Positions 28,998 to 61,364 of a stretch of 64,000 bases of DNA are shown in pieces. The notes under the pieces were generated by a model. That model did not search any database and was not told the origin of the DNA. It was given only the letters and a program-made list of their open reading frames with translations. Positions within the stretch are counted from its first letter, which is position 1, and each line of letters starts with the position of its first letter. The DNA comes from Candidatus Moraniibacteriota bacterium (GTDB lineage: Bacteria; Patescibacteriota; Minisyncoccia; Moranbacterales; UBA2206), in contig CAVZKT010000002.1 in NCBI GenBank assembly GCA_963775955.1, positions 7,994-71,993 on the forward strand. The letters run 5' to 3'. Both the position numbers and the translations under genes were made by a program.

Positions 28998-29067
28998 TAA
29001 AACGGGCGTGCTCAGTTTCCGCCAAAGGCGGACCCGCCTATGGCGGGGGTTAGAAAGTATAATGCAC

Positions 29068-31578: not shown

Positions 31579-32151
31579 ATGAGAGGAAAACCTGTTTCAA
31601 AAAAAGAAATACAGAAAATAGAGCAACTGAGAAAAACGGGGCATAGTCTGCCTGAAATTTGCAGAGTTTTGAAGCGAAGAAAATCCACGGTTCATGGATA
31701 TGCAAAGGATGTGGTTGTATTGCCGGAATATATAAATATTTTAAGACAAAAACAAGGTGGTAGTGCAGCAAGAGCTGAAAAATTTTGGAATAAAGCAAGA
31801 TTTAACGCAAAAAAACTATTAAGAAAAATCGGAAAAAGGGAAAAACTTTTTATTTTAGCTGCTATTTATTGGGGAGAAGGAGCAAAAAAAGAATTTAATC
31901 TTATTAACAGCGATCCGGCACTTATTCAAGTCTCCCTTTCCTGCTTAAGAGAGATTGGAGTTAAGGAAAAAGATCTTCGTATCACACTTAGGGTTTATGA
32001 GGGCATAAATATTGAAGATGCTAAAAAATATTGGTCGAAAATATGCAAAGTAAACTCAAGGAATATCAAAAATGTTAATGTTTTGGAAGGTAATAAAATC
32101 GGAAAGCTTCCATATGGAATGTGCAGAATACGCATAACCAAAGGCGGATAA
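31579..32151 (+). CDS. HTH + LAGLIDADG-like putative homing endonuclease
   Basis: N-terminal resolvase-type HTH (IEQLRKTGHSLPEICRVLKRRKSTVHGY). LFILAAIYWGEGAKKEFNLINSD resembles a LAGLIDADG motif. Flanked by a tRNA fragment and an intact tRNA. Confidence 0.35.
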   Translation: MRGKPVSKKEIQKIEQLRKTGHSLPEICRVLKRRKSTVHGYAKDVVVLPEYINILRQKQGGSAARAEKFWNKARFNAKKLLRKIGKREKLFILAAIYWGEGAKKEFNLINSDPALIQVSLSCLREIGVKEKDLRITLRVYEGINIEDAKKYWSKICKVNSRNIKNVNVLEGNKIGKLPYGMCRIRITKGG

Positions 32152-32207: not shown

Positions 32208-32279
32208 GTCCCCATAGTTCAATGGATAGAACGAGAGACTCCTAAGCTCTAGATCCACGTCCGATTCGTGGTGGGGACA
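32208..32279 (+). tRNA. tRNA-Arg(CCT)
   Basis: GTCCCCA-TA-GTTC...loop CTCCTAA...CCACG-TCCGATT-CGTGG-TGGGGAC-A. Unusual TCCGA T-loop and an A:G at pair 31:39. Confidence 0.75.
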
Positions 32280-32318
32280 CACTTTGACTCGCTTCACTTG
32301 TTCAGTGCAAGCAAAAAA

Positions 32319-33852
32319 ATGATCAAAAAAATTCCAACTCAAGTCATTGAAGTTTTACAAAAACTGGAAGAATCAGGCTTCGAGGCTTTTATCGTGGGCG
32401 GATGCGTGCGGGATTTGCTCACATTGTGGTGAGCCTGTGAACCAAAAGACTGGGATGTAGCGACTAATGCCAAGCCGGAAGAAGTGCAAAAAATATTCCC
32501 GGACAGTTTTTATGAAAATGAATTTGGAACGGTCGGAGTGAAAGTAAAGCCGTTTATTAAAAATGGAAATCCGAATCGTGAGCATGACGTGATAGAAGTA
32601 ACCACCTATCGCATTGAATCGAAATATTCCGACAAGCGCCGGCCGGATAAAGTTGAATTTGCAAAAACATTAGAGGAAGATTTATCAAGAAGGGATTTTA
32701 CCATCAACGCGATCGCATTAAAACTCGTAACTCATAACGCACAACTCGACACCCGAAGAGGAAAAAATAGCTACGAGCTACGAGCTATGGGTTACGAGAT
32801 CATTGATCCATATGATGGTCAGAAAGATATTAAGAAAAAAATAATCCGCGCAGTGGGTGACCCGCATGAAAGATTTGATGAAGATGCTTGCGGATGATGC
32901 GAGCGGTGCGGTTTCACGCGGAGCTGGGATATAAAATTGAAAAAAATACTTTTGAAGCCATTAAAAAAATATAGCCGGGGATTTAAAACACATTGCTCTT
33001 GAAAGAATAAAAGACGAACTGGCCAAAATTATATTATCCGACAATCCATGCTGAAGGCATTGATATGCTGCATAAAACTAAATCTTCTGGAATATATTAT
33101 TCCGGAATTGGAAAAGGGCGTGGGCGTGAAACAAAACCGCCATCATATCTATACGATATACAAACACAGCATTTTATCTTTAAAACATTGTCCTTCGCAA
33201 AAAATTGGAAGTGCGCTTGGCTGCGCTTCTGCATGACATTGCTAAGCCGCAAACCAAAAGAGGCGAAGGCGAATATGCGACTTTCTATAACCACGATCAT
33301 GTGGGTGCGCGGGTGGCGGCCAAAATTCTTGAGCGTCTGCGTTTTTCACGTGAAACAATTGAAAAGGTGAAACTTCTCGTGGATAATCATATGTTTTATT
33401 ACAATCCGGAAGAAGTGGGAGCCAGTTCCGTCAGAAAATTAATTCAAAAAGTCGGCTTGGAAAATATGAAAGATTTGATTGATGTGCGCATTGCCGATCG
33501 TTTGGGTTCGGGCGTGCCGAAGGCCAAGCCGTATAAATTGCGCCACTTGGAATATATGATTGAAAAAGTTTCCCACGATGCCATTTCCGTAAAGATGCTA
33601 AAAATCAACGGCAATGATCTGATGAAAGAATTAAATTTAAAACCCGGTCCCAAAATCGGCGCGATTCTGGATGTTTTGCTCTCGGAAGTTATTGAAGATG
33701 CTTCCAAAAATAATCGCGAGCATCTTTTAACGCGCGCTAAAGAATTGGATAAGGAGGATTTGAAAAAACTCCGCCAGATGGCGAAGGTAAAGATTGAAGA
33801 GAAAAAAGAAGAGGAAGACAAGGAAATTAAGAGAAAACATTGGGTGAAGTAG
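32319..33852 (+). CDS. cca: CCA-adding enzyme / poly(A) polymerase family with HD domain (5-6 frame changes)
   Basis: Pieces: MIKKIPTQVIEVLQKLEESGFEAFIVGGCVRDLL / PKDWDVATNAKPEEVQKIF...RDFTINAIAL...IIDPYDGQKDIKKKIIRAVGDPHERFDEDA / LRMMRAVRF.. / ...LAALLHDIAKP...YNHDHVGA. Confidence 0.85.
32724..32798 (+). repeat. 75-nt heptad-word hairpin inserted in frame in cca
   Basis: CTCGTAACTCATAACGCACAACTCGAC...AGCTACGAGCTACGAGCTATGGGTTACGAG encodes VTHNAQLDTRRGKNSYELRAMGY between the conserved RDFTINA and IIDP motifs. Confidence 0.8.
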
Positions 33853-33943
33853 GACCATTAGCTCAGTTGATTACCCGCCTCGGCTCGTGGAAGACACTTT
33901 GCGAGGCAGGGAGCACTGCATTTTCACCCCGCACCAAATTTAT

Positions 33944-34129
33944 GGATGCGTAGCTCAACCGGTTAGAGCGCTGCATTTTCATCCCGTTAGATATATGGAC
34001 GATTAGCTCAGTTGGTTAGAGCGTTGCATTCACATTGCAAAAGTCACTGGTTCGAGTCCAGTATCGTCCACAGAAAATCTAACGGGACAAGCATTGCAGG
34101 GGTCACAAGTTCAAGTCTTGTGCCATCCA
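33944..34129 (+). other. middle interrupted tRNA-like gene (same UUC anticodon arm) containing tRNA-Val(CAC)
   Basis: 5' part 33944-33981, 3' part 34094-34129. Bounding repeat CCCGTTAGAT (33983-33992) / ATCTAACGGG (34077-34086). Acceptor pairs 5/7. Confidence 0.5.
33997..34070 (+). tRNA. tRNA-Val(CAC)
   Basis: GGACGAT-TA-GCTC-AGTTGGTTA-GAGC-G-TTGCA-TTCACAT-TGCAA-AAGTC-ACTGG-TTCGAGT-CCAGT-ATCGTCC-A. Confidence 0.9.
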
Positions 34130-34230
34130 CATAAAATTGGTGCGGGGCAGGTTGCAGGGGTCAGTGGTCCGAGTCCGCTAGTGACCACAAATACTAAAAA
34201 CCAAATACAAAAAACTAAAAACTAACCAAA

Positions 34231-34846: not shown

Positions 34847-34927
34847 GCCTTGGGGTGTGGTGGAACCCGCGCAGCAGAGCGAGGCGTGGTGCGGGGCAAG
34901 CTGGCAGATTTACCTCGTGCAAATGGC

Positions 34928-35010: not shown

Positions 35011-35146
35011 CTTTATTTTTCGGAGCGTGGTATAGTGGTATTACCTGCAGCACCAGAGCGAGGCGCTCGGTGCGAGGCAGGCGCCCGTTAAATACCGGAG
35101 CATAGTATACCGGTAGTACGCGCCCCCTGCCCCGTTAAATATTTTT

Positions 35147-35217
35147 CGGGATATAGTATAGTGGTAGTACGCGCGATTCGGGTTCGTGAAGTCCCAGTTC
35201 GATTCCGGGTATCCCGA
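35147..35217 (+). tRNA. tRNA-Pro(CGG)
   Basis: CGGGATA-TA-GTAT-AGTGGTA-GTAC-G-CGCGA-TTCGGGT-TCGTG-AAGT-CCCAG-TTCGATT-CCGGG-TATCCCG-A (one A:C in the T-stem). Confidence 0.8.
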
Positions 35218-35449
35218 CATCGAAAAATTTAACGGGGTGAAGGTGGGTGTAGACCGGGTTCGATTCCCGGCATCCCGACCGAAAATTTAACAGGGTGAAG
35301 GTTCGTGAAAACCGGGCTCGCCCCGCGCCATTTCTCGGGATAATTGTGGTTTTATTAGGCATTAAGGCGAAGCCGCTTCGCTTTAGTTCTGATGAATATC
35401 ACAGATTATGTTTGGAAATGGTGCGGGGTGAAATTCCCGGCATCCCGAC

Positions 35450-35743
35450 ATGAAAATAATTATAAAAAAAATTAAAGAAAATCCGACAAGTCTGCTGCGG
35501 ATGGCCGGCTATATTTTTCAGCGCAACGAGGGCGAAGAAATGAGTTTTATCCGTCCTTTGGCGCGCGCGGGCTTTCCGCGTTTCCATATGTATGCTAGTG
35601 TGGCTGGAACTGATTTAGCAATAAACATCCATCTGGATCAGAAAAAAGAAACCTACGGAAATTCTAATCGCCATCATGGAGAATATGGAGATGAAGGCGC
35701 ATTAAAGGCGGAGATTGAGAGAATAAAAAGTATTTTGCAATAA
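35450..35743 (+). CDS. hypothetical protein
   Basis: 97-aa ORF between tRNA clusters. Confidence 0.5.
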   Translation: MKIIIKKIKENPTSLLRMAGYIFQRNEGEEMSFIRPLARAGFPRFHMYASVAGTDLAINIHLDQKKETYGNSNRHHGEYGDEGALKAEIERIKSILQ

Positions 35744-37338: not shown

Positions 37339-37362
37339 AAAATGTTTTTGCGGATGTCTTTT

Positions 37363-37450: not shown

Positions 37451-37500
37451 GCGCGCTTAGCTCAGTTGGCTAGAGTCCGCCACGGCGGATTTACACCGAG
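37451..37500 (+). pseudogene. partial copy of tRNA-Val(TAC) (acceptor, D-arm, modified anticodon arm)
   Basis: GCGCGCTTAGCTCAGTTGGCTAGAG is identical to 37745-37769, followed by TCCGCCACGGCGGA-TTTACAC-CGAG. Confidence 0.7.
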
Positions 37501-37511
37501 AGGGTAAAATT

Positions 37512-37754
37512 ATGTTTTTTGTATACATTATCGAAAATAATGACGGAAAGCTGTATATTGGTCAAACCTATAATTTAGAAAAAAGAATTCTAGATCATAA
37601 CGAATTAGGAATAGGATATACTTCTAAATTTAGACCATGGAAATTAATATATTCAGAAAGTTTTTATTCCAGGAAAGATGCTATGAAAAGAGAAAAATAT
37701 TTAAAAACCGGAGCTGGCAGGGACTGGATTAAAAATAATATCAGGCGCGCTTAG
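37512..37754 (+). CDS. GIY-YIG nuclease-domain protein (80 aa)
   Basis: MFFVYIIENNDGKLYIGQTYNLEKRILDHN...KREKYLK. The stop codon TAG lies inside the 5' end of the downstream tRNA-Val(TAC). Confidence 0.8.
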   Translation: MFFVYIIENNDGKLYIGQTYNLEKRILDHNELGIGYTSKFRPWKLIYSESFYSRKDAMKREKYLKTGAGRDWIKNNIRRA

Positions 37755-37821
37755 CTCAGTTGGCTAGAGCGCCTCGTTTACACCGAGGATGTCGGGGGTT
37801 CAAGTCCCTCAGCGCGCACCA
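37745..37821 (+). tRNA. tRNA-Val(TAC), the only tRNA here with an encoded CCA
   Basis: GCGCGCT-TA-GCTC-AGTTGGCTA-GAGC-G-CCTCG-TTTACAC-CGAGG-ATGTC-GGGGG-TTCAAGT-CCCTC-AGCGCGC-A-CCA. Confidence 0.9.
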
Positions 37822-37933
37822 TTTCGGAAAAGTGCGGATGGAGTCCGCCACGGCGGATTTACAACAGAGAGTTTGGGGGCTGAAAGTTCGCCGTGGCGAA
37901 TTCGAGTCCTATAGGATCCACCCTTAAAAATAA

Positions 37934-38181
37934 CCTGGATAGCTCAGTTCCGCCAAGGGCGGACAGGGTTCGAGCACACGACCCCGCACTAAAATTTTGC
38001 CGAGTTAGCTCAGTGGTAGAGCACACGACTGAAAATCGTGGTGTCCCCAGTTCGATCCTGGGACTCGGCACATAAATGGCAAAATTTAGTACGGGGCAAG
38101 CTGAAAATTTTACCCCGCACCAATCCGCCGCGGATTTGGTGTCGGGGCCTTGCGTGCCCAGTTCGACTCTGGGATCTGGCA
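37934..38181 (+). other. interrupted tRNA-Phe-like gene enclosing intact tRNA-Phe(GAA)
   Basis: CCTGGATAGCTCAGTT[CCGCCAAGGGCGG]...GAGCACACGAC | CCCGCACTAAAATTTT | tRNA-Phe | AAAATTTAGTACGGGG CAAG CTGAAAA [TTTTACCCCGCACCAATCCGCCGCGGATTTGGTGTCGGGG] CCTTGCGTG-CCCAG-TTCGACT-CTGGG-ATCTGGC-A. Confidence 0.5.
37999..38070 (+). tRNA. tRNA-Phe(GAA)
   Basis: GCCGAGT-TA-GCTC-AGTGGTA-GAGC-A-CACGA-CTGAAAA-TCGTG-GTGTC-CCCAG-TTCGATC-CTGGG-ACTCGGC-A. Confidence 0.9.
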
Positions 38182-38231
38182 CAAAATATTGCTTTGCATG
38201 AAGCGGGTCTGCCCGCCAAGGCGAAGCGCAG

Positions 38232-38303
38232 GCGGGTATCGTATAGCGGCTATTATATTACCTTGCCAAGGTAGAGATACGGGTTCGACTCCCGTTACCC
38301 GCT
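38232..38303 (+). tRNA. tRNA-Gly(GCC)
   Basis: GCGGGTA...TTACC-TTGCCAA-GGTAG...ACGGG-TTCGACT-CCCGT-TACCCGC-T. Preceded by a duplicated GCGGGT + GC hairpin. Confidence 0.8.
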
Positions 38304-38405
38304 CAGCGAAAAATGAGGCTAATTGAAGCCTTGTTTTTTATTACCCATGAGGGAAATCGAACTGTGTGGTATAATAAAAATGTAATAAATTAAAAAAATA
38401 ATGTT

Positions 38406-38786
38406 ATGAAGATAGAACAGGGACCCCAAAAACCTCTCAATAAAGATGAAGCGCATGAGTTAGCTAATATGATGAAAGCTAAATGGCCGCTAGTATCAAG
38501 AACTGCGGAAGACTACAATCGAGCGCTTATTTTAGTTGAGGAAATAAAACAAGAAGCTGAAAAGGAATCTAATGTGGAAAAAGTTTTTAATGATGTGGCT
38601 CGTCGGGCAGTAACAAATTATCATGACTTCCTTGATTTTGTTCTTGGATTATGCGGAAGTGGAGATGATTTGGAAAAAAGATCTATGTCACTTCATGATC
38701 TTGAAGATGCGGCAAAAAAATTAAAAGATTTGAAATTCGAAGCAAAAAAAGTTGCAGAACGAGAAAATAATGGAGTTGCCCAGTAG
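38406..38786 (+). CDS. hypothetical protein
   Basis: 126-aa ORF. Hairpin terminator at about 38936-38961. Confidence 0.5.
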   Translation: MKIEQGPQKPLNKDEAHELANMMKAKWPLVSRTAEDYNRALILVEEIKQEAEKESNVEKVFNDVARRAVTNYHDFLDFVLGLCGSGDDLEKRSMSLHDLEDAAKKLKDLKFEAKKVAERENNGVAQ

Positions 38787-39841: not shown

Positions 39842-39918
39842 CCCCGTTAGAAGTTATATATTTTGCTTATTAAAGCCTTAAATGGCAATTTTTCGCTTGA
39901 AAAAGACTTCTAACGGGG
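39842..39918 (+). repeat. CCCCGTTAGA-type inverted-repeat element
   Basis: CCCCGTTAGAAGT (39842-39854) / ACTTCTAACGGGG (39906-39918). Confidence 0.8.
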
Positions 39919-40585: not shown

Positions 40586-40768
40586 AAATTCAAAATAAAA
40601 TATGCAAAAACATCCCGAGCAATTGGGATGTTTTTGTTTACTCCCGCATCAACTTTTTATTTTATTAAATTTCGATTATTAACCAATTAATTTCTATGTA
40701 AAAAGTTGGTGCGGGGTTTGACCTAAGGAGTTGTTTTTGGTAAACTAAGCCTTGTAATATAGTATTTT

Positions 40769-55891: not shown

Positions 55892-56000
55892 CCCCGTTAG
55901 AAGTTCACAGACGTCTTTTTTCACATAGATACGCGCGAGCGAAGCGGCTTTACCTTTAAGTATTCTTTTTGGTGGATACTTTCCAAAAATTCTAACGGGG
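55892..56000 (+). repeat. CCCCGTTAGA-type inverted-repeat element
   Basis: CCCCGTTAGAA (55892-55902) / TTCTAACGGGG (55990-56000). Confidence 0.8.
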
Positions 56001-61184: not shown

Positions 61185-61364
61185 AATAAAAAACAGCCCC
61201 GAAGGGCTATTTCCGACCACGTTCCTATGCTGGATGTCCCAGCCACACCACCATCCGGTGATAGTTCAGAATACAGGTCTTTGTGCTTATAATACTAGCA
61301 TAACTAAAAAATATTTCAAGTTAAATTGTCCACAGCCTAAAATATGGCTTAAATAAGGAATTTT

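Follow-up and report, generated by a model that had tools for sequence, protein, structure and literature searches.

Why would a bacterium hold an intact tRNA gene in the middle of a broken copy of that same tRNA gene? This question is raised by a 248-nt locus in a 64,000-nt stretch of contig CAVZKT010000002.1, called the window here, which comes from an ultra-small Moranbacteria bacterium of the Candidate Phyla Radiation (CPR). The locus contains a complete tRNA-Phe(GAA) gene between inverted repeats, and on either side of these repeats lies one half of a second tRNA-Phe. The enclosed gene is called the cargo, the repeats are called arms, and the outer halves together form the host. The answer that we consider probable is that the locus is a replacement cassette, armed with palindromes and exchanged horizontally at the level of DNA, and not a nested gene that is spliced.

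The window is bacterial, with Pfam matches to FtsH, IF-2, NusA and trigger factor. By ribosomal protein L19, its nearest relatives are Candidatus Moranbacteria metagenome-assembled genomes. Relatives are referred to by handles such as L201. The order L19, tRNA-Leu(GAG), Val(TAC), Phe(GAA), Gly(GCC) is kept among them.

The layout of the nest was read from positions 37700-38500 of the window and is listed in Table 1. The host 5' half (..CCTGGATAGCTCAGTT, then the hairpin, then ACAGGGTTCGAGCACACGA) is 95% identical to positions 5636-5701 of L201, and its acceptor strand has four substitutions in seven nucleotides compared to the intact type-1 tRNA-Phe (GCCAGATTAGCTC). The mini-hairpin in the host D-loop is found at the identical site in L201 and L004. 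The arms of cassette A pair with one mismatch and one bulge; the left arm is identical in L201 and reads CCCACACTAAAATTT in L004. With its arms the insert measures 115 bp and is non-coding. The inner tRNA is presumably the working gene; its identity to the Phe genes of L201 and L210 is 92-93%. The block CAAGCTGAAAATTTTA, a 16-mer, is the same in the window, L201 and L004. Homologues of element B in L201, L203 and L004 have different arms and loops, yet these stay complementary. When the 248-nt RNA is folded (z = -3.3), the arms are predicted to close off the inner tRNA as a domain, with B as a separate hairpin.

Most of these parts had been pointed out in a sequence-only reading of this stretch, and they are indeed there. 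The 11 nt before the left repeat (GAGCACACGAC, 37972-37982) match nucleotides 21-31 of the cargo at 100% by blastn-short. The Phe anticodon loop returns after the right repeat and its CAAG, a second hairpin without cargo comes next, a T-arm and acceptor follow it, and the host D-loop does carry a hairpin. The acceptor pairing of 6/7 given for the host is obtained only if the acceptor and D stems are a single nucleotide apart. The register homologous to that of real tRNA-Phe, ACCTGGA-TA-GCTC, gives 4/7.

Table 1. Positions of the tRNA-Phe nest, of the other nests and of the empty palindromes in the window.
Feature	Position	Strand	Remarks
tRNA-Phe nest	37934-38181		248 nt
Host tRNA-Phe, 5' half	37934-37981	+	decayed acceptor strand, D-arm, anticodon-stem 5' strand CACGA
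D-loop mini-hairpin CCGCCAAGGGCGG	37950-37962	+	13 nt, inserted after AGTT of host D-loop
Cassette A, left arm CCCCGCACTAAAATTTT	37982-37998	+	next G (37999) extends it
Inner tRNA-Phe(GAA)	37999-38070	+	intact, no encoded CCA; ARAGORN 37999-38071; Rfam RF00005 69.9 bits, 37999-38070
Cassette A, trailer CATAAATGG	38071-38079	+
Cassette A, right arm CAAAATTTAGTACGGGG	38080-38096	+	17 nt, inverted repeat with left arm
Cassette A, terminal CAAG	38097-38100	+	follows right arm
Host anticodon-loop remnant CTGAAAA	38101-38107	+	sequence read
Empty palindromic element B	38108-38147	+	TTTTA + CCCCGCACCAA / TCCGCCGCGGA loop hairpin / TTTGGTGTCGGGG; directly after host anticodon loop
Host tRNA-Phe, 3' part	38148-38181	+	anticodon-stem 3' strand (T)CCTT, variable loop GCGTG, T-arm, acceptor ATCTGGC, discriminator A
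Host CCTT GCGTG	38148-38156	+	anticodon-stem 3' strand and variable loop
Host CCCAG-TTCGACT-CTGGG-ATCTGGC-A	38157-38181	+	T-arm and acceptor; sequence read
tRNA-Val(CAC) nest, three levels	33852-34187		intact gene 33997-34071
tRNA-Pro nest, at least three levels	35020-35450		intact Pro(CGG) 35147-35218
Empty palindromes of the same families, 73-109 nt	starts 7270, 8352, 35321, 39842, 40643, 47579, 55892		inverted-arm search
Empty palindromes before promoter-like boxes	39842-39918, 40643-40715, 55892-56000		upstream of 3D-domain gene, tRNA-Cys and nusA respectively

Besides Phe, the window has nests of tRNA-Val(CAC) and of tRNA-Pro. In the Val nest the innermost gene has arms CCCGTTAGATATAT / ATCTAACGGG, the second copy (33944-34130) has arms CCCCGCACCAAATTTAT / ATAAAATTGGTGCGGGG from a different family, and the third copy has a 37-nt insert in its D-loop. 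From the inside out, the acceptor pairing goes from 7/7 to 5/7 to 4/7. In the Pro nest the intact gene has two more 5' halves on its upstream side and three 3' fragments on its downstream side. There is no match between the 5' halves (CGGAGCR) and the 3' halves (CATCCCG), and an element with a decayed interior (35321-35428) interrupts the outermost T-loop. Successive levels repeat the same junctions (marked here with a slash): ...G/CCCCGTTAAAT...GGGG-TGAA/GGT occurs twice in the Pro nest and TTTTCA/CCC..GGG/CARG twice in the Val nest. Twelve of the 15 tRNAs in the window have no arms.

Smaller fragments are also present. A Leu 5' fragment (GCCTTGGGGTGTGGTGGAA, an L205-type allele) and half a palindrome ending in GGTGCGGGGCAAG lie at 34848-34927, before the intact Leu(CAG), as a one-sided leftover. 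At 37350-37357 an 8-nt remnant, GCGGATGT, precedes Leu(GAG); L216 and L209 keep full Leu nests there. Just upstream of the intact tRNA-Val(GAC), at 28999-29060, there is a pseudo-tRNA 5' fragment (..GGGCGTGCTCAGTT) with mini-hairpins TCCGCCAAAGGCGGA and CCCGCCTATGGCGGG.

Nests recur well beyond this genome. In a scan of 219 tRNAs from 92 sources, CCCC-type arms were found around 12, each of which is enclosed by halves of its cognate tRNA. Phe nests are found in the window, L201, L203 and L004, and Val(CAC) nests as well as Pro nests in the window and L201. Leu(GAG) nests occur in L001, L209 and L216, Val(TAC) nests in L016 and L022, and a Gly(GCC) nest in L038. The last three of these genomes are distant Parcubacteria, with an L19 that is 48-53% identical to that of the window. 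Their arms are nearly as in the window (CCCCGTTAGAT), and the termini TTCA-CCCC...GGGG-CAAG are the same. Independent assemblies repeat individual nests: L202 has the Pro nest of L201, and L204 the Phe nest of L203. The cassette does not always enter at the same place, since by lineage it sits in the D-loop, at position 26, at 31/32, at 35/36, or replaces a whole arm.

Two sets of candidates were discarded. The 'armed' tRNA-Val of L026 (Saccharibacteria) has a different, AT-rich repeat and no host halves. The 16-mer CAAGCTGAAAATTTTA has at least 120 matches in metagenomes; the two with plausible GGG/CCC flanks are chance matches in coding sequence.

At the syntenic Phe site, the gene is plain in L002, L008, L009, L205, L206, L208, L209, L210 and L212/L213, and nested in the window, L201, L203 and L004. 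A group I intron interrupts it in L001 (RF00028, 79.9 bits). L003 and L211 have an intron by sequence homology, with no Rfam call (L003 was scanned, L211 was not). The uninterrupted form of the host, which the sequence-only reading had proposed to look for in relatives, is there: L212/L213 and L209 have a plain GCCAGAT...ATCTGGCA, and the host 3' part of the window matches the intact tRNA-Phe of L212 at 33 of 34 positions. It is 89% identical to L203.

The condition of the host differs a great deal between nests. Excision was simulated by brute force over combinations of boundaries, and each construct was run through ARAGORN. For the Phe host of the window, 1824 of 367,353 combinations (0.5%) give a tRNA call, and at the natural boundaries the anticodon stem (CACGA vs TCCTT) pairs at 3/5 and the acceptor at 4/7. 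The Val host of L201 gives a call in 121 of 169 constructs, all of them a clean tRNA-Val(CAC), and the Pro host of L201 in 94 of 169. Among Phe hosts, that of L203 is called in 4990 of 9801 constructs, with an acceptor of 7/7, that of L201 in 237 of 9801 and that of L004, which has no D-stem 3' strand, in none of 9801. The middle level of the Pro nest in the window is called in none of 289 constructs, and the Gly host of L038 has its whole anticodon arm replaced by the cassette. Excision to a canonical cloverleaf fails in the window and holds only for some relatives. This means that host decay is graded, which is the pattern of redundant copies and not of exons.

Judged by these letters and foldings, the outer Phe gene of the window is a chimeric pseudogene of two alleles, and would be non-functional. 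The idea that removing both inserts restores a foldable tRNA-Phe did not hold up. Host and cargo are, as had been proposed, copies of one isoacceptor, both being tRNA-Phe. Two readings had been offered on that ground, a 'replacement cassette' and a 'nested gene'. The first is favoured here; the second, with a functional host, fares badly given the rare calls after excision, the poor pairing and the two-allele chimera.

One indication of exchange is that the identity to the window changes along the nest. For the host 5' half with the left arm, it is 95% in L201, 49% in L203 and 75% in L004. For the cargo it is 92%, 75% and 81% respectively, and for the trailer, right arm, linker and B left arm 96%, 68% and 79%. 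For the B right arm and host 3' half, it is 67%, 89% and 72%. The nest of the window is thus recombinant, with a left block like that of L201 and a right block like that of L203/L212. At fourfold-degenerate sites the identity to the window is 0.33-0.51 for L201, 0.65-0.68 for L203 and 0.25 (saturated) for L004. The adjacent Val(TAC) is 97% identical to that of L201, and the Gly 95% to that of L212. As far as these comparisons tell, vertical decay alone is excluded as the origin of the nest.

The working tRNAs of relatives are 66-97% identical, and each has its best match in a different genome, so that allele replacement in the tRNA cluster is, on the face of it, rampant. Host and cargo can also trade places: for Val(TAC) the roles in L016 are the reverse of those in L022, and for Val(CAC) the same holds of L201 and the window. 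The anticodon arm CACGA/TCGTG-GTGTC is in the cargo of the window and in the host of L201, which points to gene conversion between layers. The patchy distribution, the conflict with the genome tree and the co-converted flanks are as for insertions associated with homing endonucleases.

Events probably went as follows. A resident tRNA-Phe of the GCCAGAT...ATCTGGC type, intact today in close relatives, would have been interrupted by a cassette of some 115 bp. This cassette would consist of complementary arms (CCCCGCACYAA... / ...TTRGTGCGGGG-CAAG, from a genome-wide family) around a complete foreign allele of the same tRNA. The inner tRNA would take over the function, and the redundant outer halves would become a pseudogene. 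They would go on to gain the D-loop mini-hairpin and the empty palindrome B, lose their acceptor pairing and recombine with other alleles.

Nested alleles would pass between lineages as blocks through homologous recombination, anchored on the conserved tRNA sequences of the Leu-Val-Phe-Gly cluster. Such block exchange would lead to a distribution that is patchy, mosaic and at odds with the tree. Gene conversion between host halves and cargo would shuffle alleles, and therefore the roles of host and cargo could swap. Insertion repeated into the cargo would give the 3-deep Val and Pro nests. The layout, its recurrence, the exclusively cognate hosts, the differing states of decay, the mosaic make-up and the disagreement with the genome tree are observed. 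We infer this order of events and the spread by recombination, as well as any role of the arms, which might for instance form a stem in the transcript that sets the inner pre-tRNA apart. That all hosts are cognate may reflect homology-dependent spread, targeting of tRNA genes plus selection, or both; with 12 out of 12 cognate hosts the cassette may be 'self-targeting', a label which the sequence-only reading offered for it.

The arms are a genome-wide feature. The motif CCCCGCAC occurs 10 times in the window, compared to 1.2 expected, which is more than chance would give. There are two arm families, CCCCGCACYAA... and CCCCGTTA..., with at least 13 copies in the 64 kb and with complementary termini, and the Val and Pro nests of the window use both. 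Arms are common to the window, L001, L004, L016, L022 and L209. The terminus GGGG-CAAG is found at Val, Leu and Phe nests of the window, L001, L004, L016, L022, L201 and L209, and in several genomes Val and Leu nests share the full termini TTCA-CCCC...GGGG-CAAG.

Seven palindromes in the window are empty. Their arms align, their interiors do not, and no internal sequence common to these seven copies was found. Each arm copy retains its own complementary inner stem. The mini-hairpins form a family of their own, CCGCC-N3-GGCGG, with 11 in the window vs 0.2 expected; they recur in D- and T-loops of other pseudo-tRNAs. Searched at E<=10 over 28-42 kb, Rfam has no family for the arms or for the host halves.

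Three of the empty palindromes end in GGGG followed by TTGAC(A/T/C)-N17-TATACT, TAAACT or TAAGAT, which resemble -35/-10 boxes.

Two known kinds of site were considered for the arms and rejected. GTTAGAT / ATCTAAC fit the core consensus of an integron attC, but the stem polarity is reversed and the CCCCGCACC family lacks the motif. For a retroelement primer-binding site, CCCCGCACCA does look like the 3' end of a tRNA, but none of the tRNAs in the window has such an end, and again the second arm family is without the motif.

Several observations count against a replacement cassette. No transposase, recombinase or nuclease could be linked to the arms; a RAYT/TnpA-like transposase was not noticed among 22 open reading frames (ORFs) examined with Pfam, 21 from the window and one from L001, the window having 112 ORFs of at least 100 aa. 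No target-site duplication was found at the fresh junctions (L201 Val, L022 Val, L038 Gly), where a few host bases are at times lost instead. The 219-tRNA scan saw no free-standing armed tRNA, one without host halves. Random transposition would leave such tRNAs behind, so targeting would have to depend on homology, structure or selection. The arm motifs CCCCGTTAGA and CCCCGCACCAA are conserved across lineages in which synonymous sites are saturated. Conserved arms with copy-specific inner stems also fit hairpins that serve the host, for instance in processing RNA or insulating transcripts. Three empty copies stand directly before -35/-10 boxes. Pure junk would not be expected to keep an identical 16-mer in the window, L201 and L004, except after recent transfers.

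Armed cassettes might be a new, CPR-specific class of selfish element that carries a complete spare copy of the essential gene it disrupts. A conserved protein recognising the ends TTCA-CCCCG...CGGGG-CAAG would insert it preferentially into the cognate tRNA gene, and by re-invading its own cargo it would create multi-level nests and rapid turnover of tRNA alleles across Parcubacteria. This we put forward as a possibility, and a doubtful one.

The rival explanation that survives best starts from the transcript. The palindromes could be processing or insulating stems selected by the host, for example RNase III sites as at rRNAs, that release tRNAs from a polycistronic cluster transcript; the tRNA-like halves would then be incidental. 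It would explain why arms are conserved over very distant Parcubacteria when interiors are not, why their complementarity is maintained copy by copy, and why empty copies lie where transcription units meet, immediately ahead of promoters. The fold z-score agrees with it too. A general processing signal does not predict that armed tRNAs are confined to cognate host halves, nor that most tRNAs, in the window and in relatives, do without arms. The mismatches in the arms are by eye a mix of C-A, A-A and G-T, with no evident enrichment of G-U wobble pairs on the transcribed strand, and the distribution is patchy and at odds with the genome tree. As a full explanation we hold it unlikely. Hairpins with a host function in processing or insulation could coexist with the replacement account.

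Somewhat less credit goes to an actively transposing or homing selfish element, in which a dedicated nuclease or recombinase recognises the CCCCG... arms or the tRNA gene and inserts the cassette into the cognate gene, with repeated cutting of the cargo leading to nesting. Junctions that are alike at successive Pro and Val levels are what it would produce, as are the like termini of Val and Leu nests in several genomes and the cognate nature of every host. ORFs of GIY-YIG type and with HTH/LAGLIDADG likeness are dispersed in the tRNA cluster. No enzyme gene lies within or consistently beside the cassettes, however, the insertion position differs by lineage, the two Val levels use different arm families, and target-site duplications are missing. 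We regard it as improbable.

Could the outer gene be functional after all? Cassette and hairpins would then be introns, and the outer tRNA-Phe would also be matured, by RNase P, RNase Z and a ligase or by an archaeal-like endonuclease. In the predicted fold the arms do juxtapose the host halves, and in L201 and L004 removal of CCCGCAC..GGGGCAAGC and TTTACCCC..GGGG gives perfect anticodon arms. Some hosts are otherwise flawless (L201 Val, L022 Val) or have a perfect acceptor stem (L203). The host of the window is chimeric and poorly paired, that of L004 lacks part of its D-stem and that of L038 its anticodon arm; decay is graded instead of constrained. Close relatives manage without a nest. With identical anticodons in cargo and host, nothing would be gained from a second product. 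The organism is a bacterium, and its junctions are not of the archaeal bulge-helix-bulge kind: sequence and fold show one continuous helix of 16-17 bp with unequal single-stranded flanks (8 vs 5 nt in L022), and no 3-nt bulges separated by 4 bp were found there. ARAGORN in intron mode (-i 0,300) reports the inner tRNAs only. A functional nested gene is very unlikely.

An assembly artefact, or neutral and vertically inherited debris of tandem duplications, is scarcely credible: the contig is metagenome-derived and the nearby cca has several one-base indels, but independent assemblies from JGI, ENA, Logan and NCBI contain the same nests, identity to L201 is 95-96% in the non-tRNA parts despite near-saturated fourfold-degenerate sites, and a tandem origin would take three copies and two matched deletions at least nine times over, which is unparsimonious given at least nine independent nests with mutually matching host halves.

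Interrupted tRNA genes are not new in these organisms. Group I introns, some with homing endonuclease genes, have been described in tRNA anticodon loops of Patescibacteria (PMC13011429). Like the nest, they target CPR tRNA genes, down to the same syntenic tRNA-Phe in L001, L003 and L211. They too are patchily spread, and in both cases the insertion is tolerated because tRNA function is restored. In the nest this would be done by a spare gene, and not by splicing. The window has no RF00028 match at the gathering threshold or at E<=10, with L001 as positive control, and the nest has its insertion sites at 31/32 and 38/39, as against 34/35 for the Phe group I intron. Twintrons, or introns within introns, have the same Russian-doll layers from repeated insertion into an earlier insert. 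They are removed by sequential splicing, whereas the outer layers of the nest appear to be abandoned.

Known families of palindromic repeats include the Rickettsia palindromic elements, REPINs and the Correia elements of Neisseria. Similar to these, the present elements are 70-115 bp long, have complementary ends and many copies per small genome, with some beside promoters. RNA genes are among their insertion sites, and in L203 one lies in frame within the cca coding sequence. They differ in that copies have no interior conservation and show no target duplication. In addition, a subset encloses a complete tRNA gene, and is then always inside the cognate tRNA gene.

A further comparison is with genomic islands and prophages that use tRNA genes as integration sites and bring along part of the tRNA, with which the gene is rebuilt. 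Here also a tRNA gene is hit, and displaced tRNA fragments remain as direct repeats; the nearby GIY-YIG unit (37451-37821) resembles this type. The cassette, unlike an island, is about 0.1 kb long and holds a whole tRNA, both host halves are displaced so that the arrangement is nested and not tandem, and no integrase or recombinase gene lies within the insert.

In phage T4, SegB is a free-standing GIY-YIG homing endonuclease in a tRNA gene cluster. The likeness lies in endonuclease genes among tRNA genes and in the preferential inheritance of alleles of the tRNA region; the Phe nest itself contains no endonuclease. We know of no nested tRNAs reported for T4.

Archaea have intron-containing, split and permuted tRNAs as well as mobile tRNA introns (Fujishima et al. 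2009 and 2010, as cited in PMC10714607). These share with the nest the several positions of interruption, and complementary flanks that can join halves. The nest differs in being bacterial, in having no bulge-helix-bulge, in its decaying hosts and in an 'intron' that is a full copy of the same tRNA.

The literature on nested tRNAs, interrupted CPR tRNAs and the arm motifs yielded no description of such a locus; PMC13011429 covers group I introns only. The parts have analogues in palindromic repeats, group I introns with homing endonucleases, tRNA-targeting islands and twintrons. For a palindrome-enclosed tRNA nested recursively in its own isoacceptor gene, we found no described kind.

If the replacement cassette is real, spare genes would be a third route by which genome-reduced bacteria tolerate insertions in essential tRNA genes. 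Two other routes are seen in these genomes: group I introns that splice themselves, and GIY-YIG endonuclease elements next to a partial copy of the tRNA. It would also account for the fast, mosaic turnover of tRNA alleles, with orthologous tRNAs 66-97% identical among close relatives. The conserved arm motifs hint at a putative DNA- or RNA-binding factor common to Parcubacteria. For annotation there is a risk that pseudo-halves and wrecked tRNAs with hairpins are mistaken for split or intron-containing tRNAs. A natural bacterial system that generates interrupted, nested and fragmentary tRNA genes bears on the debate about the origin of split and intron-containing tRNAs.

The neighbourhood of the nest is rich in endonuclease-type ORFs, in keeping with the replacement reading. 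At 37451-37505 lies the 5' two-thirds of a Val(TAC) copy, of which the first 25 nt equal the intact gene and in which the hairpin TCCGCCACGGCGGA takes the place of an anticodon-stem strand. An 80-aa GIY-YIG ORF (37512-37754, Pfam 2.4e-18) sits between this pseudo-Val and the intact Val(TAC). It is about 180 nt upstream of the Phe nest and belongs to the Val(TAC) unit, which is also found in L210 and L216. In L212 a GIY-YIG ORF follows a duplicated tRNA-Gly 3' end. Closer to the nest, at 37833-37925, is the wreck of a GGATCC-type Val(TAC) with two hairpins, an allele that is intact in L212/L213.

Beside tRNA-Arg(CCT) there is a 190-aa ORF with an HTH_38 domain (31579-32151). It is homologous (BLASTP 1e-12) to ORFs downstream of the intron-bearing tRNA-Phe in L001, L003 and L211, with the motif YW(A/G)EG in common; that of L001 is HTH/LAGLIDADG-like. 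It is probably a free-standing gene of the homing-endonuclease type.

The gene for the CCA-adding enzyme (32259-33852) looks broken. It has an in-frame TGA in a 9-nt insertion near 32429, and at least four one-base indels between 32887 and 33200 compared with the intact 532-aa ORF of L203. None of the inspected tRNA genes of the window encodes CCA. There may be a second gene elsewhere, the indels may stem from the assembly, or the gene may truly be a pseudogene. The L203 ORF (894-2492) itself carries a GC-rich palindrome in frame, CCCTGCCTCGCCGGCAGGCGGG, at about 1390-1420. It belongs to a hairpin family seen in pseudo-tRNA D-loops of L216, and recalls the Rickettsia palindromic elements.

Downstream of the nest, the leader of tRNA-Gly(GCC) at 38196-38231 repeats the first six bases of that tRNA (GCGGGT). 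Two mutually exclusive hairpins are possible in it, one of which hides the 5' acceptor strand, and this is kept in L004, L201 and L203. Further away, on the minus strand at 61211-61279, Rfam finds a DUF3800-IX RNA (RF02968) with 48.8 bits, above the gathering score.

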